The notes under the pieces are model-generated. The model was not told the DNA's origin and searched no databases. It saw only the letters and a program-made list of their open reading frames with translations. DNA of 64,000 bases from Eledone cirrhosa (taxonomy: Eukaryota): NCBI GenBank assembly GCA_964016885.1, contig OZ024741.1, positions 341,868,001-341,932,000 on the forward strand. Direction: 5' to 3'. The first letter of the stretch is position 1; every line of letters starts with the position of its first letter. Below are positions 1,203-53,770 of the stretch, piece after piece. A program made the translations under genes and the position numbers.

Positions 1203-4200
1203 CTTCCATTCTCACCGCAGCCATATACAGGTTGTATGTCACCTGCATTCATAGTGTTATGCTGCATGGCTCTGAAGCATGGGCAGTGACTGCAGAGGAT
1301 TTGCACAGGTGGGAGAGAAATGAAGCAAACATGCTTTGATGGTTGTGACCAGTTGTAGTGTGCAGAAGAGAAGATTGTGTTGATATGGATATGTGATGTG
1401 TATAAAGGATGACAGCTGCATAAAAAGGTGCAGTGCTTTCAAAATTGATAGAAGCTATAGAGTAGGAAGAGCAAAGAAGACTTGGGATGAAGTGATAGAA
1501 GCTATAGAGTAGGAAGAGCAAAGAAGACTTGGGATGAAATGATAGAAGCTATAGAGTAGGAAGAGCAAAGAAGACTTGGGATGAAGTGATAGAAGCTATA
1601 GAGTAGGAAGAGCAAAGAAGACTTGGGATGAAGTGATAGGAGCTATAGAGTAGGAAGAGCAAAGAAGACTTGGGATGAAATGATAGAAGCTATAGAGTAG
1701 GAAGAGCAAAGAAGACTTGGGATGAAGTGATAGGAGCTATAGAGTAGGAAGAGCAAAGAAGACTTGGGATGAAATGATAGAAGCTATAGAGTAGGAAGAG
1801 CAAAGAACACTTGGGATGAAGTGATAGGAGCTATAGAGTAGGAAGAGCAAAGAAGACTTGGGATGAAATGATAGAAGCTATAGAGTAGGAAGAGCAAAGA
1901 AGACTTGGGATGAAGTGATAGAAGCTATAGAGTAGGAAGAGCAAAGAAGACTTGGGATGAAATGATAGAAGCTATAGAGTAGGAAGAGCAAAGAAGACTT
2001 GGGATGAAGTGATAGGAGCTATAGAGTAGGAAGAGCAAAGAAGACTTGGGATGAAATGATAGAAGCTATAGAGTAGGAAGAGCAAAGAAGACTTGGGATG
2101 AAGTGATAGAAGCTATAGAGTAGGAAGAGCAAAGAAGACTTGGGATGAAATGATAGAAGCTATAGAGTAGGAAGAGCAAAGAAGACTTGGGATGAAGTGA
2201 TAGAAGCTATAGAGTAGGAAGAGCAAAGAAGACTTGGGATGAAGTGATAGAAGCTATAGAGTAGGAAGAGCAAAGAAGACTTGGGATGAAGTGATAGAAG
2301 CTATAGAGTAGGAAGAGCAAAGAAGACTTGGGATGAAATGATAGAAGCTATAGAGTAGGAAGAGCAAAGAAGACTTGGGATGAAGTGATAGGAGCTATAG
2401 AGTAGGAAGAGCAAAGAAGACTTGGGATGAAATGATAGAAGCTATAGAGTAGGAAGAGCAAAGAAGACTTGGGATGAAGTGATAGAAGCTATAGAGTAGG
2501 AAGAGCAAAGAAGACTTGGGATGAAATGATAGAAGCTATAGAGTAGGAAGAGCAAAGAAGACTTGGGATGAAGTGATAGAAGCTATAGAGTAGGAAGAGC
2601 AAAGAAGACTTGGGATGAAGTGATAGAAGCTATAGAGTAGGAAGAGCAAAGAAGACTTGGGATGAAATGATAGAAGCTATAGAGTAGGAAGAGCAAAGAA
2701 GACTTGGGATGAAGTGATAGAAGCTATAGAGTAGGAAGAGCAAAGAAGACTTGGGATGAAGTGATAGAAGCTATAGAGTAGGAAGAGCAAAGAAGACTTG
2801 GGATGAAATGATAGAAGCTATAGAGTAGGAAGAGCAAAGAAGACTTGGGATGAAGTGATAGAAGCTATAGAGTAGGAAGAGCAAAGAAGACTTGGGATGA
2901 AATGATAGAAGCTATAGAGTAGGAAGAGCAAAGAAGACTTGGGATGAAGTGATAGAAGCTATAGAGTAGGAAGAGCAAAGAAGACTTGGGATGAAGTGAT
3001 AGAAGCTATAGAGTAGGAAGAGCAAAGAAGACTTGGGATGAAGTGATAGGAGCTATAGAGTAGGAAGAGCAAAGAAGACTTGGGATAACGTGATAGAAGC
3101 TATAGAGTAGGAAGAGCAAAGAAGACTTGGGATGAAGTGATAGAAGCTATAGAGTAGGAAGAGCAAAGAAGACTTGGGATGAAATGATAGAAGCTATAGA
3201 GTAGGAAGAGCAAAGAAGACTTGGGATAACGTGATAGAAGCTATAGAGTAGGAAGAGCAAAGAAGACTTGGGATGAAGTGATAGAAGCTATAGAGTAGGA
3301 AGAGCAAAGAAGACTTGGGATGAAATGATAGAAGCTATAGAGTAGGAAGAGCAAAGAAGACTTGGGATGAAATGATAGAAGCTATAGAGTAGGAAGAGCA
3401 AAGAAGACTTGGGATGAAGTGATAGAAGCTATAGAGTAGGAAGAGCAAAGAAGACTTGGGATGAAGTGATAGAAGCTATAGAGTAGGAAGAGCAAAGAAG
3501 ACTTGGGATGAAGTGATAGGAGCTATAGAGTAGGAAGAGCAAAGAAGACTTGGGATGAAATGATAGAAGCTATAGAGTAGGAAGAGCAAAGAACACTTGG
3601 GATGAAGTGATAGGAGCTATAGAGTAGGAAGAGCAAAGAAGACTTGGGATGAAATGATAGAAGCTATAGAGTAGGAAGAGCAAAGAAGACTTGGGATGAA
3701 GTGATAGAAGCTATAGAGTAGGAAGAGCAAAGAAGACTTGGGATGAAATGATAGAAGCTATAGAGTAGGAAGAGCAAAGAAGACTTGGGATGAAGTGATA
3801 GGAGCTATAGAGTAGGAAGAGCAAAGAAGACTTGGGATGAAATGATAGAAGCTATAGAGTAGGAAGAGCAAAGAAGACTTGGGATGAAGTGATAGAAGCT
3901 ATAGAGTAGGAAGAGCAAAGAAGACTTGGGATGAAATGATAGAAGCTATAGAGTAGGAAGAGCAAAGAAGACTTGGGATGAAGTGATAGAAGCTATAGAG
4001 TAGGAAGAGCAAAGAAGACTTGGGATGAAGTGATAGAAGCTATAGAGTAGGAAGAGCAAAGAAGACTTGGGATGAAGTGATAGAAGCTATAGAGTAGGAA
4101 GAGCAAAGAAGACTTGGGATGAAATGATAGAAGCTATAGAGTAGGAAGAGCAAAGAAGACTTGGGATGAAGTGATAGGAGCTATAGAGTAGGAAGAGCAA

Positions 4201-5440
4201 AGAAGACTTGGGATGAAATGATAGAAGCTATAGAGTAGGAAGAGCAAAGAAGACTTGGGATGAAGTGATAGAAGCTATAGAGTAGGAAGAGCAAAGAAGA
4301 CTTGGGATGAAATGATAGAAGCTATAGAGTAGGAAGAGCAAAGAAGACTTGGGATGAAGTGATAGAAGCTATAGAGTAGGAAGAGCAAAGAAGACTTGGG
4401 ATGAAGTGATAGAAGCTATAGAGTAGGAAGAGCAAAGAAGACTTGGGATGAAATGATAGAAGCTATAGAGTAGGAAGAGCAAAGAAGACTTGGGATGAAG
4501 TGATAGAAGCTATAGAGTAGGAAGAGCAAAGAAGACTTGGGATGAAGTGATAGAAGCTATAGAGTAGGAAGAGCAAAGAAGACTTGGGATGAAGTGATAG
4601 GAGCTATAGAGTAGGAAGAGCAAAGAAGACTTGGGATGAAATGATAGAAGCTATAGAGTAGGAAGAGCAAAGAAGACTTGGGATGAAGTGATAGTAGCTA
4701 TAGAGTAGGAAGAGCAAAGAAGACTTGGGATGAAGTGATAGAAGCTATAGAGTAGGAAGAGCAAAGAAGACTTGGGATGAAATGATAGAAGCTATAGAGT
4801 AGGAAGAGCAAAGAAGACTTGGGATGAAATGATAGAAGCTATAGGGTAGGAAGAGCAAAGAAGACTTGGGATGAAGTGATAGAAGCTGACCTTGTACAAT
4901 AGTAAGGCAATGACACAGCACAGAATCAAGATCTCTGAGATTATGCAGTAATACTGAAGACCCGCCTTCCCATAAGCACAGGTTGAAACATACATCTAGC
5001 ATGCACCACCTTTCCCTCAATCCTCCCTACCCTCCAACGTCCTAACACTTCACCCACATCCTAACACCCCACCTCCCTCACACATGCACCTATATCTACC
5101 TCACCAATCCTCACGCACATCCCCCACCCAAGGTTCAAGCTCACACTTTAAAGTGATAGTTTTGGTGCCACAACTAAAAGAAGTCAGCCCACACTGTAAA
5201 GTGATTGTGTAGGTGTCACAATAAAATGTGCCAAGTCCACACCATTAAGTGGTTGTGTAGGTGTCAGAACAAAAAGCACCCAGTACACACTATAAATGTG
5301 GTTGGCATTAGGAAGGGCATCCAGCCATAGAAACCAAGCCAGAAACAGTTCTGTATGAGCAAGACACGATCACCTCACCTGACCTACCTCAAATGGGACA
5401 ACCCATCTAATTCCTGCTAGTCATTAAACAATGATGATGA
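1203..5440 (+). mobile_element. Decayed 3' part of RTE-clade LINE (family B, long 3' UTR) split by an internal minisatellite
   Basis: RLYVTCIHSVMLHGSEAWAVTAEDLHRWERNEANML then IDRSYRVGRAKKTWDEVIEAD, matching RTE C-termini at 24684-25121. Resumes at 4888 with gaagacccgcctt, 3' UTR ttaggaagggcatccagc and (ATG)n tail at ~5431-5440. Confidence 0.85.
1446..4887 (+). repeat. 47-bp minisatellite, 73 units (tgatagaagctatagagtaggaagagcaaagaagacttgggatgaag)
   Basis: tgatagaagct at 1446, 1493 and last at 4877; 4877-1446 = 73 x 47. Confidence 0.97.
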
Positions 5441-12612: not shown

Positions 12613-13219
12613 ATACATTCCCTTTTCCTTTCTGTCTTCATGCATTGGCTATGACTGTATTACCAGCCTACCTCTGGTATTGAATTTATTAAATTTACAC
12701 AGGTAGAAGTGCAAGTTGAAGTAGTAGCGTTCATAGCTTTTTTTTTTTCTATGTGAATTAGTTGAATAACTTAATGACTGACTGAAGTTTCTAGTAACTA
12801 GAGTTGTTGTTGATCCAATTTTTTACTGCCACCTATAGTTATTTCACTTCAAATTACATAATGATGCACACACACACACAAACAAATGCACACACAATGG
12901 TACACACACACGCACACACAGGAGTGGATCAAGCTGACATGGGGCTTCTAGCTGAAAATTTCAACTAGAAATATTTTATTGGTGGCAGTATAAAAATTAA
13001 TTTTGGGTCATTTAAATACTGTGAGGACCCTCGCTACAGCCAGACCAACATTCTCACCTAAATCCAACACTACACACACACATCCTTGGCTAGGCATGAA
13101 GGCCAGAACTGTTAAATATTTCACCTCTGTATAAATAACTGAGACATCTTGTAACTGTTAGCAGTCATCAATACCTTTTCTAGACACACACACACGTGTC
13201 AAGAATATATATATATATT

Positions 13220-13652
13220 TAAAGGTTCAATGAATAAATCAATGAATATAGTTTTACAATAGATTAGAAGCACTCCACAGTTTGGTTTTCCAGAGTTATT
13301 AATATTAATTCAAAATATTAACAAATATAGACATTCGTGTGATCAAGTATATTTTATTATTCATATTTCAGAGGTACTGAGCTATCTTCAACAGTACGTC
13401 CTCATCAGATAAAATAAGATGATGCTTGACATACGTTGACTAAGTAGATGGTTAAAATTCAGTCATGGCAGTGAATTTTAACCATCTACTTAGTCATGAC
13501 TGAATTTTAACCATCTACTTAGTCAACGTATGTCAAGCATCATCTTATTTTATCTGATGAGGACGTACTGTTGAAGATAGCTCAGTACCTCTGAAATATG
13601 AATAATAAAATATACTTGATCACACGAATGTCTATATTTGTTAATATTTTGA

Positions 13653-13653
<1 letters not shown>
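13220..13653. mobile_element. HHR-bearing short element with ~159-bp inverted repeat (13309-13467 / 13495-13653)
   Basis: Arms are reverse complements; homologous to 15790-16023. Confidence 0.8.
13546..13612 (+). ncRNA. Type-I hammerhead ribozyme (mirror copy 13350-13416 minus)
   Basis: UAUUUUAU-CUGAUGA-GGAcGUACUG..CAGUACcUCU-GAAAU auga AUA/AUAAAAUA; 8-bp stem I. Confidence 0.75.
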
Positions 13654-13731
<78 letters not shown>

Positions 13732-15756: not shown

Positions 15757-15811
15757 TGCCAATACTGGAATTGAATAATCAAGACCGTAGCGGTATGTCA
15801 TATATCAAATC

Positions 15812-15883
15812 ATATATTTTGTCTGATGAGGACGTACTGAAAAAACAACACAGTACCTTTGAAATATATATAATAAAGTATAT
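15812..15883 (+). ncRNA. Type-I hammerhead ribozyme, paralogue of the 13.5-kb motif
   Basis: AUAUAUUUUGU-CUGAUGA-GGAcGUACUG..CAGUACcUUU-GAAAU AUAU AUA/AUAAAGUAUAU; 11-bp stem I with 2 GU pairs, palindromic stem III loop. Confidence 0.75.
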
Positions 15884-16022
15884 ATTTTGATTATGAGAAT
15901 ATTTTTCATTTGTTAACATTTCGAATAAAATTAAAAACTCCAGGAAAACCTTTTGTTGGGTGCTTCTAATCTATTGTAAAATTGTATTCGTTGAGTAATC
16001 AACGAATCATACTAATCTTTGG

Positions 16023-29856: not shown

Positions 29857-29912
29857 TTCGTTTCTGAATTTGTTTAGCAAGATTCTTTATCTGAAATCGT
29901 GTGTTGAAACCG

Positions 29913-30420
29913 ATATTGTTATACTTTGGGAGGGTCATGTTGCCAATAAGAAACACACGCACCAGTTGCTTTCACTTCAATTTAATTTATTAAATATTTA
30001 TAAATTTACAAATTTATAAATTTCTGGTTGGTTGGTTGGTTCCACAACCAGATAGTTGTTTATATATATATAGTCATAGTTCTTTCGTCACACACTCTGT
30101 GACCTCTTCAGTGACTGGGGATTTCTTTCTTCGTTTCTGTGCCTTTCCTTTCTTCTATCCTACGCCAGAAAAATGGCGTAGGATAGAAGAAAGGAAAGGC
30201 ACAGAAACGAAGAAAGAAATCCCCAGTCACTGAAGAGGTCACAGAGTGTGTGACGAAAGAACTATGACTATATATATATAAACAACTATCTGGTTGTGGA
30301 ACCAACCAACCAACCAGAAATTTATAAATTTGTAAATTTATAAATATTTAATAAATTAAATTGAAGTGAAAGCAACTGGTGCGTGTGTTTCTTATTGGCA
30401 ACATGACCCTCCCAAAGTAT

Positions 30421-30428
<8 letters not shown>
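29913..30428. mobile_element. Head-to-head palindrome of a Penelope-like 3' terminal repeat (255-bp arms, 6-nt loop)
   Basis: Arms 29913-30167 and 30174-30428; homologous to 49032-49275. Confidence 0.9.
30225..30269 (+). ncRNA. Hammerhead-like motif in PLE terminal repeat (mirror 30072-30116 minus; paralogue 49177-49219 minus)
   Basis: AGUCA-CUGAAGA-g-GUCACA gagug UGUGAC-GAAAG aa CUA/UGACU; extra base after A9, very short stem III. Confidence 0.55.
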
Positions 30429-31231: not shown

Positions 31232-31306
<75 letters not shown>

Positions 31307-31308
<2 letters not shown>

Positions 31309-31402
31309 CATAAATTCAGGCTGTTCGTTTGTTTACAAACGGACAAAGCGGGCGTTATAATAAACGTCCGCTAAACTGATACGTACATATATGTATGTGT
31401 AC

Positions 31403-31501
<99 letters not shown>

Positions 31502-31992
31502 TGCTACTGTACGTCTGTATACATATATGTATGTACGTATACATACATACTTACATTTAAGTAAGTGCCGTACTAAGAGTGAGAAATGAAATTTCGTTTT
31601 CATTCTATTACAACTTATCGTTTTCGGTGCGCCTGGCCGACTAAACTCACTCGATATGCAAATTAAGCTGCTCAGCCGTTAATTTTCATAAGGAAAGTAT
31701 ATACTTTCGAACGTTCAACCATCTGGTAGAAGGGTATACGGTGCTGATGATAGCTAAGAAGCTTGAAACTAGTACATCGTTCCTGTGTCAGTGTTGAACA
31801 AAAAGGTGACGTGGTTGCCTTAACACCGTACGGCATAAATTCAGGCTGTTCGTTTGTTTACAAACGGACAAAGCAGGCGTTATAATAAACGTCCGCTAAA
31901 CTGATATGTATGTGTACCTGTATGTATATATATATATATGCATGCTACTGTACGTCTGTATACATATATGTATGTACGTATACATACATACT

Positions 31993-31998
<6 letters not shown>
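31307..31998 (+). mobile_element. Retrozyme-like non-coding partial tandem (period 525 including a TA expansion) with HHR at 31738-31780
   Basis: ggcataaattcaggctg at 31307 and 31832; ACGGUG-CUGAUGA-uAGCU aaga AGCUu-GAAAC ua GUA/CAUCGU. Confidence 0.75.
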
Positions 31999-32057
<59 letters not shown>

Positions 32058-46119: not shown

Positions 46120-47340
<1,221 letters not shown>

Positions 47341-47344
47341 ATAT

Positions 47345-48568
47345 AAACAAATAACGAAACGAAATTAAATTTCGTTTCGTTTGTAACTCACTTTTGTATG
47401 ACTGACGCTTAAACAATTAAGTTAAAAATGTACATCTACATATGCATACTGAAATACTAGTGTGTATATGAATACACACACGTATACATATGTAGGTGTA
47501 CCAAGTCTTTCACTGGTCGCTTTACAGTGAGCGGCCCAGCTATTCTGTATGTAAACACACAGACAAACCGGTTTTTAGAGTCATACTGGTTTTTCGGGGG
47601 AACACCTTCCCCCTATTCTCCAGAAAGCCAGACAAGGAATATTGAACTAGTTTCGTTGTTGTTACAACTCATCAGCAATATTTACCTATCTACCGGCCTT
47701 TCTGGAGAATTGTAAAAGCACATATCGTTATATGCTTTTTCTATGAAAATTAGTAGTGGGCAGACTAATTTGCATAGAGTGTGAGTACGCACCGGTTCAG
47801 CGGAGACGATAAAAACAAATAACGAAACGAAATTAAATTTCGGAGTTACAAACGAAACGAAATTTAATTTCGTTTCGTTATTTGTTTAGGGGGAATAGGG
47901 GGAAGGTGTTCCCCCGAAAAACCAGTATGACTCTAAAAACCGGTTTGTCTGTGTGTTTACATACAGAATAGCTGGGCCGCTCACTGTAAAGCGACCAGTG
48001 AAAGACTTGGTACACCTACATATGTATACGTGTGTGTATTCATATACACACTAGTATTTCAGTATGCATATGTAGATGTACATTTTTAACTTAATTGTTT
48101 AAGCGTCAGTCATACAAAAGTGAGTTACAAACGAAACGAAATTTAATTTCGTTTCGTTATTTGTTTTTATCGTCTCCGCTGAACCGGTGCGTACTCACAC
48201 TCTATGCAAATTAGTCTGCCCACTACTAATTTTCATAGAAAAAGCATATAACGATATGTGCTTTTACAATTCTCCAGAAAGGCCGGTAGATAGGTAAATA
48301 TTGCTGATGAGTTGTAACAACAACGAAACTAGTTCAATATTCCTTGTCTGGCTTTCTGGAGAATAGGGGGAAGGTGTTCCCCCGAAAAACCAGTATGACT
48401 CTAAAAACCGGTTTGTCTGTGTGTTTACATACAGAATAGCTGGGCCGCTCACTGTAAAGCGACCAGTGAAAGACTTGGTACACCTACATATGTATACGTG
48501 TGTGTATTCATATACACACTAGTATTTCAGTATGCATATGTAGATGTACATTTTTAACTTAATTGTTT
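47345..48568. mobile_element. Retrozyme-like 468-bp unit: ~1.07 copies minus joined head-to-head to ~1.45 copies plus
   Basis: Period 468 on both strands (47348/47816; 47893/48361); no coding signal. Confidence 0.8.
48297..48341 (+). ncRNA. Minimal type-I hammerhead ribozyme (identical mirror 47638-47682 minus)
   Basis: AAUAUUG-CUGAUGA-GUUGU aaca ACAAC-GAAAC ua GUU/CAAUAUU; perfect stems I and II. Confidence 0.85.
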
Positions 48569-48626
48569 ATATATATATATATATATCCATATCCATATAT
48601 ATATATATATCCATATATATCCATAT

Positions 48627-48664
<38 letters not shown>

Positions 48665-48720
48665 ATATATATCCATATCCATATATATATATATATATAT
48701 ATATCCATATATATCCATAT

Positions 48721-48760
<40 letters not shown>

Positions 48761-49031
48761 ATATATATATATATATATATCCATATCTATATATATATAT
48801 ATCCATATATATATATATATATATCCATATATATATATCCATATCCATATATATATATATATATATATCCATATATATATATATATATATCCATATATAT
48901 ATATCCATATCCATATATATATATATATATATATATATCCATATATATATATATATATATATCCATATCCATATATATATATATATATATCCATATCCAT
49001 ATATATATATATATATATATCCATATATATA

Positions 49032-50980
49032 TATTGTTATACTTTGGGAGGGTCATGTTGCCAATAAGAAACACACGCACCAGTTGCTTTCACTTCAATT
49101 TATTATAATAAATTTATAAATTTATAAATTTCTGGTTGGTTGGTTGGTTCCACAACCAGATAGTTGTTTATATATTGTCAAAGTTCTTTCGTCACACATT
49201 CTGTGACCTCTTCAGTGACTGGGGATTCTTTTCTTTGTTTGTTTTTGTGCCTCTCCTTTGTTCTGTCCTACGCCATTTTGTTTCTGTGTGTGTGTTGTGT
49301 GCTCAGTCTGCGCATGCTCCACATCCGGGTGTCTGTGTGTGTTTATTTATTTGTTTATTTACATGTTACCGGTTGGTTGTTTGTTCTATGTGTGTGTGTG
49401 TTTTCATTTTGTCCTTAATTGTAAGTTGTGATGTTGCTGTTCCACTCATATTTTCTATTTAATTTTGGTTGTAATTCTTTTATGTTTATTGCCTCTGTGA
49501 TTTGTCTAAACATTGCGTCTTTTCTGTGTGTAGACTCTATTTTTATTTCTATGTTCTCTAATTTACCCTTATGTTCTATTTTAGCATGTTGGTAGAGTAC
49601 AGATGATTCTTTACTATCTTCAAGGTCTCGCCAGTGTTCATTTATCCGTTCCCCTACACTACGAGCTGTCTCACCTATGTACACTATATTTTTTTGTCCT
49701 ACTTAAACTTACCTATAGTAATAATTACCTAGACACATATGACCTTAGCAACCTGTGCCCTACAAGACCAGCAAGAGGCAGAGCACCTACCATTACCTCA
49801 ATGGCCAAGAAAACCCACACAGATAGATGAAACGGGTGGACCAGAGCCATACGGACACCCGAAAACCACGATGAACTAAAGAAAATGATTTCACATGCGA
49901 TAGGGGCCAGCATAAAACTAACCCTTAAGGAACATATGTTCAAATTTAATGGAAAAACATATGCCCAAGAGGAAGGAGCAGCCATTGGTGTTAGCATTGC
50001 AGGCGACATAGCTAACTTATTCATGGTATGGTGGGACAGTAGACTTAAACTTAAAGTTAAAGAACAATTAGAAGACCCCTTAACCCTGATAATGTACTCC
50101 CGCTACGTTGATGATATAAACATCGTAGTTAAGACACCCCCACTAGAGAACAGTCAGGAACTAGAGAAAAACACAATGGAAAGCATCCAGAAAATAGCTA
50201 ACTCCATCCACCAGAGTATTAGAGTTACTATAGACTACCCAAGTAAACACCCCAACCATCGATTACCTGTACTAGACACAGAGCTCTGGTTAGATACCAT
50301 TAATAACAAAAAACAAATCCTCCATTCCCATTATGCCAAACCCATGACTTCCAAACATCTGATCCACCGAAACTCGGCTGTTTCGGACCATACCAAAATC
50401 AACATACTGATTGCGGATTTGGGACGGGTGATGAGAAACGTGTCCCGCATGTGCACCCCCGAAGAACTAGAGAGACACATACAACACTTCATCCACCGTA
50501 TGCAGTTCTCTGGTTACAATCAGAGAGATAGAATCAGAGTGTATAGAGGAGCCAGAACCAAATGGGAAAAAATGGTAAATAATGACACAAATGGGACCTG
50601 CCCCTTGTATAAGAGCAAATTTTGGAATAGAATAGAAAGAACTAGGAATAAGGCTAATAGAATAAACTCATGGTATGATAGCAATAAATACCAGAGTGTA
50701 ATGTTCATCGATACAACCCCTAGAGGTGAATTAGCTTACAAATTTAGAACGGCCCTAGATAAACATAAACTCAATATTAAGATAGTAGAAAGACCAGGTA
50801 CCTCTGTAAAAACACTTATTAGCAAGACATGCCCTTTCCAAAGACCCCCCTGTATAGATAAGAAATGTATAACCTGTAAAATAAACCCCCATATTAACTG
50901 TAAAACTAGAAATGTAGTGTATAGCATAAGATGTACTGAAGGACAATGTAGAGACAAAAATATAGTGTACATAGGTGAGA
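49032..50980 (-). mobile_element. Penelope-like element with 5' inversion: GIY-YIG end plus terminal repeat on minus (49032-~49700), RT inverted on plus (~49720-50980)
   Basis: Plus: GAAIGVSIAGDIANLFM, YSRYVDDI, LPVLD, NVVYSIRC..IVYIGET. Minus: YIGETARSVGERINEH..RQITEAINI..LNRKYEW. Confidence 0.9.
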
Positions 50981-51170
50981 CATTGCTCCAGTTTACTCAC
51001 CTGTATATGGGGTCCCTACCATTCCACTGTAGAGTGGTCGTGGAGGTGCCACGGAAAAAAAGCACCCAGCACTCACTGTAAATGAGGTTGGTGTTAGGAA
51101 GGGCATGCAGCTGTAGAAATCAAGCCAAAATCAGTTCCCGTCCCACCTTTGCAAGCAGGGAAAAGACGGA
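50981..51170 (+). mobile_element. Chimeric-tail SINE fragment
   Basis: ttgctccagtttactca..gtggtcgtggaggtgcc..cagttcccgtcccacctttgcaagc. Confidence 0.8.
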
Positions 51171-52917: not shown

Positions 52918-52934
52918 CGTCCATTTATATATAT

Positions 52935-53769
52935 ATAAACGGAAAAAATGAAACGAAATTTCATTTCCCACTCTTAGTACGGCTGTTACTTAAATATAAG
53001 TATGTGTACGTACATAAATATATGTATACAGACGTACAGTAGTATGTATATATATATACATACATGCACACATATATATATGTACGTATGGATTCACCGA
53101 ACATTTATTATAATACTCGGTGTGTTTGTAAACAAACATCCCGTATTAAGCCGTAGCGTCTAGCAACCATCGTTGCTCGTTTGTTCAACACTGACAAAGG
53201 AACGATGTACTAGTTTCAAGCTTATTAGCTATCGTCAGCAACGTATACCTTGCTGCCAGATGATTGAACGTCTGAAAGTATATACTTTCCTTATGCATAT
53301 TAACGGCTGAGCAGCCTAATTTGCATATCGAGTGGGTTAATCGGCCGGGTGCACCGAAAACGATAAACGGAAAAAAATGAAACGAAATTTCATTTCCCAC
53401 TCTTAGTACGGCTGTTACTTAAATATAAGTATGTATATGTACATACATATATGTATACAGACGTACAGTAGTATGTATATATATATATATACATACATGC
53501 ACACATATATATATGTAGGTATGGATTCACCGAACATTTATTATAATGCTCGGTGTGTTTGTAAACAAACATCCCGTTTTAAGCCGTAGTGCTCAGCCGT
53601 TAATATGCATAAGGAAAGTATATACTTTCAGACGTTCAATCATGCTGACGATAGCTAATAAGCTTGAAACTAGTACGGCGTTCCTTTGTCAGTGTTGAAC
53701 AAACGAGCAACGATGGTTGCTAGACACTAAGAGTGGGAAATGAAATTTCGTTTCATTTTTTCCGTTTAT

Positions 53770-53770
<1 letters not shown>
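52935..53770 (-). mobile_element. Retrozyme-like 428-bp partial tandem (minus) plus deleted inverted copy; HHR at 53202-53244 (minus), stem-I-damaged copy ~53644-53676 (plus)
   Basis: ataaacggaaaaaatgaaacg period 428 (52940/53368); ACGUUG-CUGACGA-uAGCU aaua AGCUu-GAAAC ua GUA/CAUCGU. Confidence 0.78.

Follow-up and report, generated by a model that had tools for sequence, protein, structure and literature searches.

The insertion at 47345-48569 of the window, by which we mean the whole 64,000-nucleotide stretch of Eledone cirrhosa DNA that was analysed, is probably a young copy of an abundant, non-coding, hammerhead-bearing family with a 468-nt unit, which has the two-site ends of Penelope-like elements (PLEs) and is likely spread in trans by a PLE reverse transcriptase (RT)/GIY-YIG protein via a predicted circular RNA. 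We hardly doubt that the family is a non-autonomous retrozyme, consider its movement by PLE machinery very probable, and lean towards a template that was circular rather than an uncut linear multimer. The preliminary description of this DNA had proposed a young non-autonomous element copied from a multimeric or circular RNA, possibly by a PLE-like RT, and this is still the best reading, with which the copies elsewhere in the genome and the insertion ends agree.

The insertion in the window and its predicted ribozyme

The insertion is made of two inverted arms of the unit, flanked by (TA)n on both sides. Its parts are given below, with unit positions counted from the predicted hammerhead cut.

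47345-48569, no strand assigned: the entire insertion in (TA)n, a pair of inverted arms whose RNA-sense 3' ends face outward
47197-47344, no strand assigned: left target flank, (TA)n-rich
47345-47842, minus strand: left arm of 498 nt (1.06 units), which ends outward at site B (unit position 300-304)
47636-47686, minus strand: second hammerhead, identical to the first, predicted cut after 47645 in the minus-strand reading
47843-47889, plus strand: junction piece, 45 nt (47843-47887; unit 256-300, tail hairpin) plus 2 extra bases
47890-48569, plus strand: right arm of 680 nt (1.45 units), which ends outward at site A (unit 235)
48102-48170, plus strand: 'tail' between site A (48096-48101) and site B (48166-48170), holding a 13-bp hairpin (48130-48158)
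48204-48211, plus strand: octamer-like motif, present in both sister families and also within a predicted stem
48293-48343, plus strand: type I hammerhead, predicted cut after 48334 (GUU)
48570-49034, no strand assigned: right target flank, (TA)n-rich, common to the adjoining coding PLE insertion

The period of 468 is seen on the plus strand between 47885-48101 and 48353-48569 and on the minus strand between 47341-47374 and 47809-47842, and the arms are complementary at 100% over 433 nt, in agreement with the head-to-head repeat in (TA)n described at the outset. The insertion holds two hammerheads in total, one in each arm, and a long array is absent from it; the junction piece at 47843-47889 is likely the product of a template switch or of fold-back. 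The unit has a GC content of 38% and a longest ATG frame of 19-20 aa, and the earlier claim that it is non-coding holds accordingly, no ATG frame exceeding 20 aa. Compared with shuffled sequences, the whole unit folds far more stably (z -7.5; 0/100), whereas the hammerhead alone does not (z -1.6); in the predicted circular fold of the unit 66% of the bases are paired, with stems I and II formed.

Stem I of the hammerhead pairs 48297-48303 with 48335-48341 (7 bp, plus a UA bulge and an extension), the core CUGAUGA begins at 48304, five base pairs make up stem II, and ACUAGU provides a palindromic helix III of 2 bp that is followed by the triplet GUU. The motif letters and the predicted cut position thus stand as first quoted, and both copies are matched by Rfam model HH9 with an E of 6e-8 and 38.6 bits, short of the 52 that this model has as gathering score; a scan of the whole window with Rfam gave no match at the gathering threshold, and its miRNA and sRNA matches were dismissed as hairpin noise. 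In the relevant part of PMC4209133, the canonical metazoan type I form needs a dimer, and the 'minimal' form of PLE repeats is without helix III. By these definitions, the predicted ribozyme is a canonical metazoan type I hammerhead with a palindromic helix III of 2 bp. The minimal PLE hammerhead (no helix III, long helix II, short helix I) was considered and ruled out, helices III, II and I having 2, 5 and 7 bp, so that the preliminary description was right about type I and the palindromic ACUAGU but not about 'minimal'.

Among 20 chosen variants, which come mostly from two families and therefore represent few independent events, double changes occur in 6/16 pairs, 92% of the cells are paired and the core is invariant. 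The cut triplet is GUC, GUU or GUA only, and the core and stems are conserved across families that are 52% identical. The youngest subfamily has GUU at the cut, a weaker hammerhead cleavage site, and older subfamilies have GUC plus a compensated pair in stem II. Judged by the invariant core and the paired double changes, the core and stems are apparently under selection.

Copies and insertion ends across the genome

In the 3.0-Gb genome the 31-nt core occurs 5,142 times in exact form, and related cores with this palindromic helix III number 40,656, compared with 34 of the reversed pattern, and these about 40,000 cores make up a sizeable repeat class in the genome. In a DNA search with a 231-nt query, 41 of the 48 matches were full-length at 100%, two of them being the window's own; as 40 of 949 candidates were scored, 41 is a lower bound. 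A genome-wide search of the unit, suggested earlier as a check on whether it occurs elsewhere at all, thus found thousands of other copies. Identity among subfamilies goes down to about 85%, repeat periods range from 461 to 468, and arrays of up to about 30 units occur elsewhere in the genome. A colinear sister family, 52% identical, with a unit of 420-430 nt, the triplet GUA, the same palindromic helix III and 11,105 exact cores, is commoner than the 468-nt family and has its insertion ends at the two homologous sites; two insertions of it lie in the window, at 31300-32000 and 52930-53770. The octamer-like motif at 48204-48211, which resembles the octamer of snRNA promoters, lies in a block conserved between the sister families, where the shared 21-mer pattern around it has 12,602 matches, and is a possible internal promoter element. 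Four contig runs of unrecorded kind, from three organisms coded A, B and C, span all or part of the unit and contain the 468-nt back-joint, which is uninformative on circles because it also occurs in the DNA arrays. The window also holds, at 1446-4887, a tandem array of 73 copies of 47 bp with 97% identity.

To describe the anatomy of the insertions, 113 of them in 109 loci were mapped onto the unit. Typically, two inverted arms have their RNA-sense 3' ends outward, and the outer ends fall not at the ribozyme cut but at two fixed sites, A (about 230-235) and B (about 300-304), 69-74 nt apart. The 52 insertions that had not been selected by their ends comprised 37 with one end of each kind (A+B), none with A+A, none with B+B and 15 with a single classifiable end; those selected on one end (n=33) gave 18 A+B, 1 A+A, 13 with one end and 1 without a hit. 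The 25 loci selected with both ends known (23 A+B, 1 A+A, 1 single) were excluded from the evidence for this rule, but do count among the 68 insertions used for arm lengths below. Left out were L173 (a duplicate of L172), L155 (no hit) and overlapping loci of one insertion, and an A+B insertion (L015-017) stands outside the tally of 52 and 33; genome-wide counts of A and B ends are not comparable with each other, the matches being overlapping and subfamily-specific. Alternating TA adjoins 171/183 outer A or B ends, and target-site duplications of 12-33 nt were seen in 15/24 informative cases, in low-complexity DNA and without a chance control.

Two coding PLE families of the genome behave alike, two-armed insertions being A+B in 7/8 and 14/14 cases (together 21/22), with tails of about 60 and 40 nt. 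The PLE layout given in sections of PMC8557442 and PMC3846280 combines a truncated, inverted arm with a tail that is present at one end, and the in vitro work in the part of PMC11167929 drawn on here has a PLE protein that cuts and extends both strands, with RT starting at two internal sites whose distance equals the genomic tail. Since the latter work ties the tail to two internal RT starts, we infer that sites A and B are RT start sites, and the pair bounding 48102-48170 in the window would be one such pair. The one-A-one-B ends are the PLE 'tail' footprint, as in the coding PLEs of the genome, and the insertion ends support the link to PLEs more directly than the evidence within the window, on which the preliminary description relied, could.

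The template and the rival explanations

Arm lengths were compared in 68 clean two-armed insertions, in which 105/136 arms cross the hammerhead cut, 40/136 cross two or more, and 5/68 insertions fit one linear monomer. The read-through and the small number of monomer fits point to a circle or an uncut multimer as the template, and the read-through and the variants shared by sister arms are consistent with either. Between sister arms the difference is 0-2.5%, while the medians of the differences from other arms are 1-12%; in a sample from chromosome 1, the sister arm was strictly the nearest of about 70-80 arms in 9/16 cases, and in 7/16 the arm of some other insertion was equally near. Gene conversion between arms may be another source of this likeness. 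In one insertion (L061), 18/18 full units are identical over both arms and differ by about 6% from the unit of the window. The longest arrays (L147, L175/176 and the minus arm of L075) show periodic shared variants, which indicate later duplication, so that array length does not equal the number of RT rounds.

It is possible, if rather doubtful, that the same element and the same PLE machinery copied a linear multimer that came from a genomic array and had stayed uncut, with a hammerhead that is slow or protein-dependent and with circles, if any, as a side product. Such a multimer accounts for the read-through equally well, uniform source arrays such as L061 would yield identical units in both arms, the young subfamily carries GUU, and uncut RNA was the main template, with cleavage dispensable, in the part of PMC11167929 drawn on here. 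This is countered by the conservation of the ribozyme core and stems across families 52% apart, by the strict unit period held in all insertion variants and by the tested retrozymes of coral, mussel and axolotl, which accumulate as circles according to portions of PMC7229834. Arm 5' ends are also modestly enriched just 3' of the cut (26/191 in the 30 nt after it and 10 in the 30 nt before, with 12 expected; scan-corrected p 0.03), an excess that hints at some cleaved RNA, although a 30-bp stem at this place could stall RT alike. We think it unlikely that the second arm was copied as DNA from the first cDNA by fold-back, or arose by self-priming on antisense RNA as proposed in the relevant section of PMC3846280. 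Sister arms are near-identical, junctions often contain short rearranged pieces at hairpins (the window's included), and in 50/68 insertions one arm is nested within the span of the other, all as expected from fold-back; however, the nesting goes both ways (A within B in 33 insertions, B within A in 17), and the 18/68 insertions in which neither arm is nested, the window's among them, argue against fold-back copying, even if later loss at the palindrome centre could blur the picture.

A highly improbable reading makes the unit the pLTR of an unsampled coding PLE and its copies truncated ends or solo repeats that were amplified locally as a satellite. The ends behave exactly as pLTR ends do, long arrays show local duplication, three insertions adjoin PLE frames, and part of the preprint bioRxiv 10.64898/2026.07.22.740005 derives retrozymes from pLTRs with local amplification. 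Yet arms longer than one unit run on as further unit and not as a reading frame, the unit has no frame over 20 aa, and arms of several units whose ends lie exactly at A and B are dispersed over many contigs. Moreover, 110/113 insertions are without a PLE frame within 300 nt, and the frames adjoining the other 3/113 are all decayed and belong to three different families, so that the unit does not map as the ordinary terminal repeat of a coding PLE, the outcome named earlier as the one that would speak against a retrozyme. The unit may have descended from an old pLTR.

Coding PLEs and the search for a partner

The preliminary description had mentioned Penelope-like RTs in the window. Only one of the RT frames is PLE-like (49831-50983), and the other three look LINE-like, to judge by a zf-RVT, a PHD or a neighbouring AP-endonuclease frame. 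The best named match of the window's PLE protein is a protein of Octopus vulgaris (70%). The PLE in question, PLE-1, is present at 49035-50983 as a coding, truncated and inverted copy that is split by another repeat; a palindromic mini-insertion of a PLE-1 end, with a long-helix-II hammerhead and a tail of ~60 nt on one side, lies at 29857-30427, and a short piece like the 3' end of PLE-1, from a diverged subfamily, lies at 47061-47200 in the same (TA)n tract as the retrozyme. The tract around the retrozyme has been struck by several PLE-type insertions. A third kind of hammerhead-like motif in the window, with a long stem II, forms an inverted pair in (TA)n at 13210-13655 and 15770-16020, and related pieces adjoin L246, L249 and L252.

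The genome holds 24,655 PLE-1 candidates and at least three PLE families with a C-terminal GIY-YIG domain, two of which have long open frames. The frame of PLE-1 starts just before its site A, so that its tail is coding. PLE-2 (L245-L254) is very young and Neptune-like, with an open frame of 777 aa and a repeat that has only a non-canonical hammerhead-like fold, and its 20 best-matching copies have a median identity of 99.85%. Its site-A ends often continue as runs of the last dinucleotide, (CT)n, and then (TA)n, suggesting telomerase-like repeated copying at initiation. No Pfam family was found for two full PLE-1 frames; we call these elements PLEs on the basis of RT and GIY-YIG motifs, a CxxC-type linker and insertion anatomy, and the linker appears Neptune/Nematis-like.

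No homology of the unit was found to PLE-1, to PLE-2 or to the repeats of 30 of the 150 listed GIY-YIG loci. The sole shared stretch is a 10-mer that lies in the tail of PLE-1 (uncorrected p about 0.02), and local folds at sites A and B revealed no structure common to the unit and PLE-1. PLE-1 as a candidate partner fits in tail length and in this 10-mer, and PLE-2 fits in age and in its U-rich start contexts. L010 and L035 look chimeric but were discounted as junctions with decayed neighbours. In L255 (450-4220, the place of L167), an older retrozyme arm whose left end is at site B is joined to a 5'-truncated right arm of a third PLE family; this is possibly a chimeric insertion, made by co-mobilisation or by a deletion join.

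Relation to known elements and a proposed mechanism

The portion of PMC7229834 drawn on here describes animal non-LTR retrozymes that cleave and form circles in coral, mussel and axolotl, and proposes PLEs as their mobilisers. Full-text literature searches, outside subscription journals and Repbase/Dfam, returned no description of the present family or of a tail footprint on retrozymes, and the words 'ribozyme' and 'hammerhead' are absent from the main text of the 2026 O. vulgaris repeat annotation; a description of the family, of which the preliminary account knew none, was thus not found, while its class is described. By its sequence features, the 468-nt family is a new family of these known retrozymes. 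Akin to them, it consists of non-coding tandem units, each with a predicted canonical type I hammerhead, whose weak palindromic helix III resembles that of HHR_Amex1 of the axolotl retrozyme; GC is under 50%, the predicted circle is highly self-paired, copies number in the thousands, PLEs occur in the same genome, and the arms consist of the unit only, with no LTR layout. Units measure 150-450 bp in the sections used of PMC7229834 and 51-972 bp in those of the preprint, so that 468 lies above the first range and inside the second. As opposed to what these sections describe, insertions here are inverted and two-armed, with fixed end sites and (TA)n targeting, and cleavage and circles, demonstrated for the known retrozymes, are predicted here.

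Endonuclease-bearing PLEs, as far as PMC8557442 (Fig. 2), PMC3846280 and PMC11167929 (Poseidon PAc) were drawn on, share with the family an inverted 5'-truncated arm, a one-ended tail, AT-rich or (TA)n targets and start sites that lie downstream of the hammerhead and not at the cut. They differ in their reading frame, of which the unit has none, in a tail of 30-40 nt as opposed to 69-74 nt, and in the minimal pLTR form of the hammerhead, in place of whole-unit repeat arms and a hammerhead with helix III. The non-autonomous Chlamys elements in part of PMC8557442, such as MRC1, are likewise passengers of PLEs that lack coding capacity, have ends like those of pLTRs and insert as several copies head to tail, but in that account they are without canonical hammerheads and resemble the 3' end of their autonomous partner, a similarity not found here. 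Newt satellite 2 (parts of PMC7229834 and PMC2220036), compared by description only, is also a hammerhead-bearing tandem repeat that cuts as a dimer, with an internal snRNA-type promoter where the 468-nt unit has its octamer-like motif.

Taken together, these observations can be accommodated in the following scheme. Arrays would be transcribed into multimers, whose hammerheads would cleave, probably paired as dimers via the palindromic helix III; the monomers would then be closed into circles by a host ligase. A PLE protein, probably a dimer, would then cut both strands of a (TA)n tract, and RT would be primed by both DNA ends on a single RNA variant, from site A at one end and from site B at the other; both cDNAs would run on past the hammerhead site a varying number of times before joining head to head, and the longest arrays would later extend by local duplication. 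We tentatively suggest, as a possibility, that a Penelope dimer reverse-transcribed a single small RNA circle in rolling-circle fashion, with one fixed site per strand, and that the insertions are the genomic record of this.

In the parts of the literature drawn on here, PMC7761336 finds in retrozyme repeats no motif that reveals the mobilising element, and the preprint links retrozymes to PLEs by co-occurrence and repeat homology, calls the mechanism unresolved, samples no mollusc, reports that 1/9 predicted retrozyme dimers were cut in vitro, and proposes that arrays grow by local duplication. The mobiliser of animal retrozymes is stated as open in both, and here the insertion ends bear the PLE footprint, which adds nucleotide-level evidence for insertion by PLE machinery, with defined sites and candidate enzymes. 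The same data separate two origins of arrays, at insertion and by later duplication, and the two candidate RT start sites together with young PLE families that have long open frames bring the question within reach of the in vitro PLE assay already published. If true, the rolling-circle reading would show a strict one-site-per-strand rule for Penelope integration and would identify both the class of enzyme and the signal in cis by which animal retrozymes are spread.
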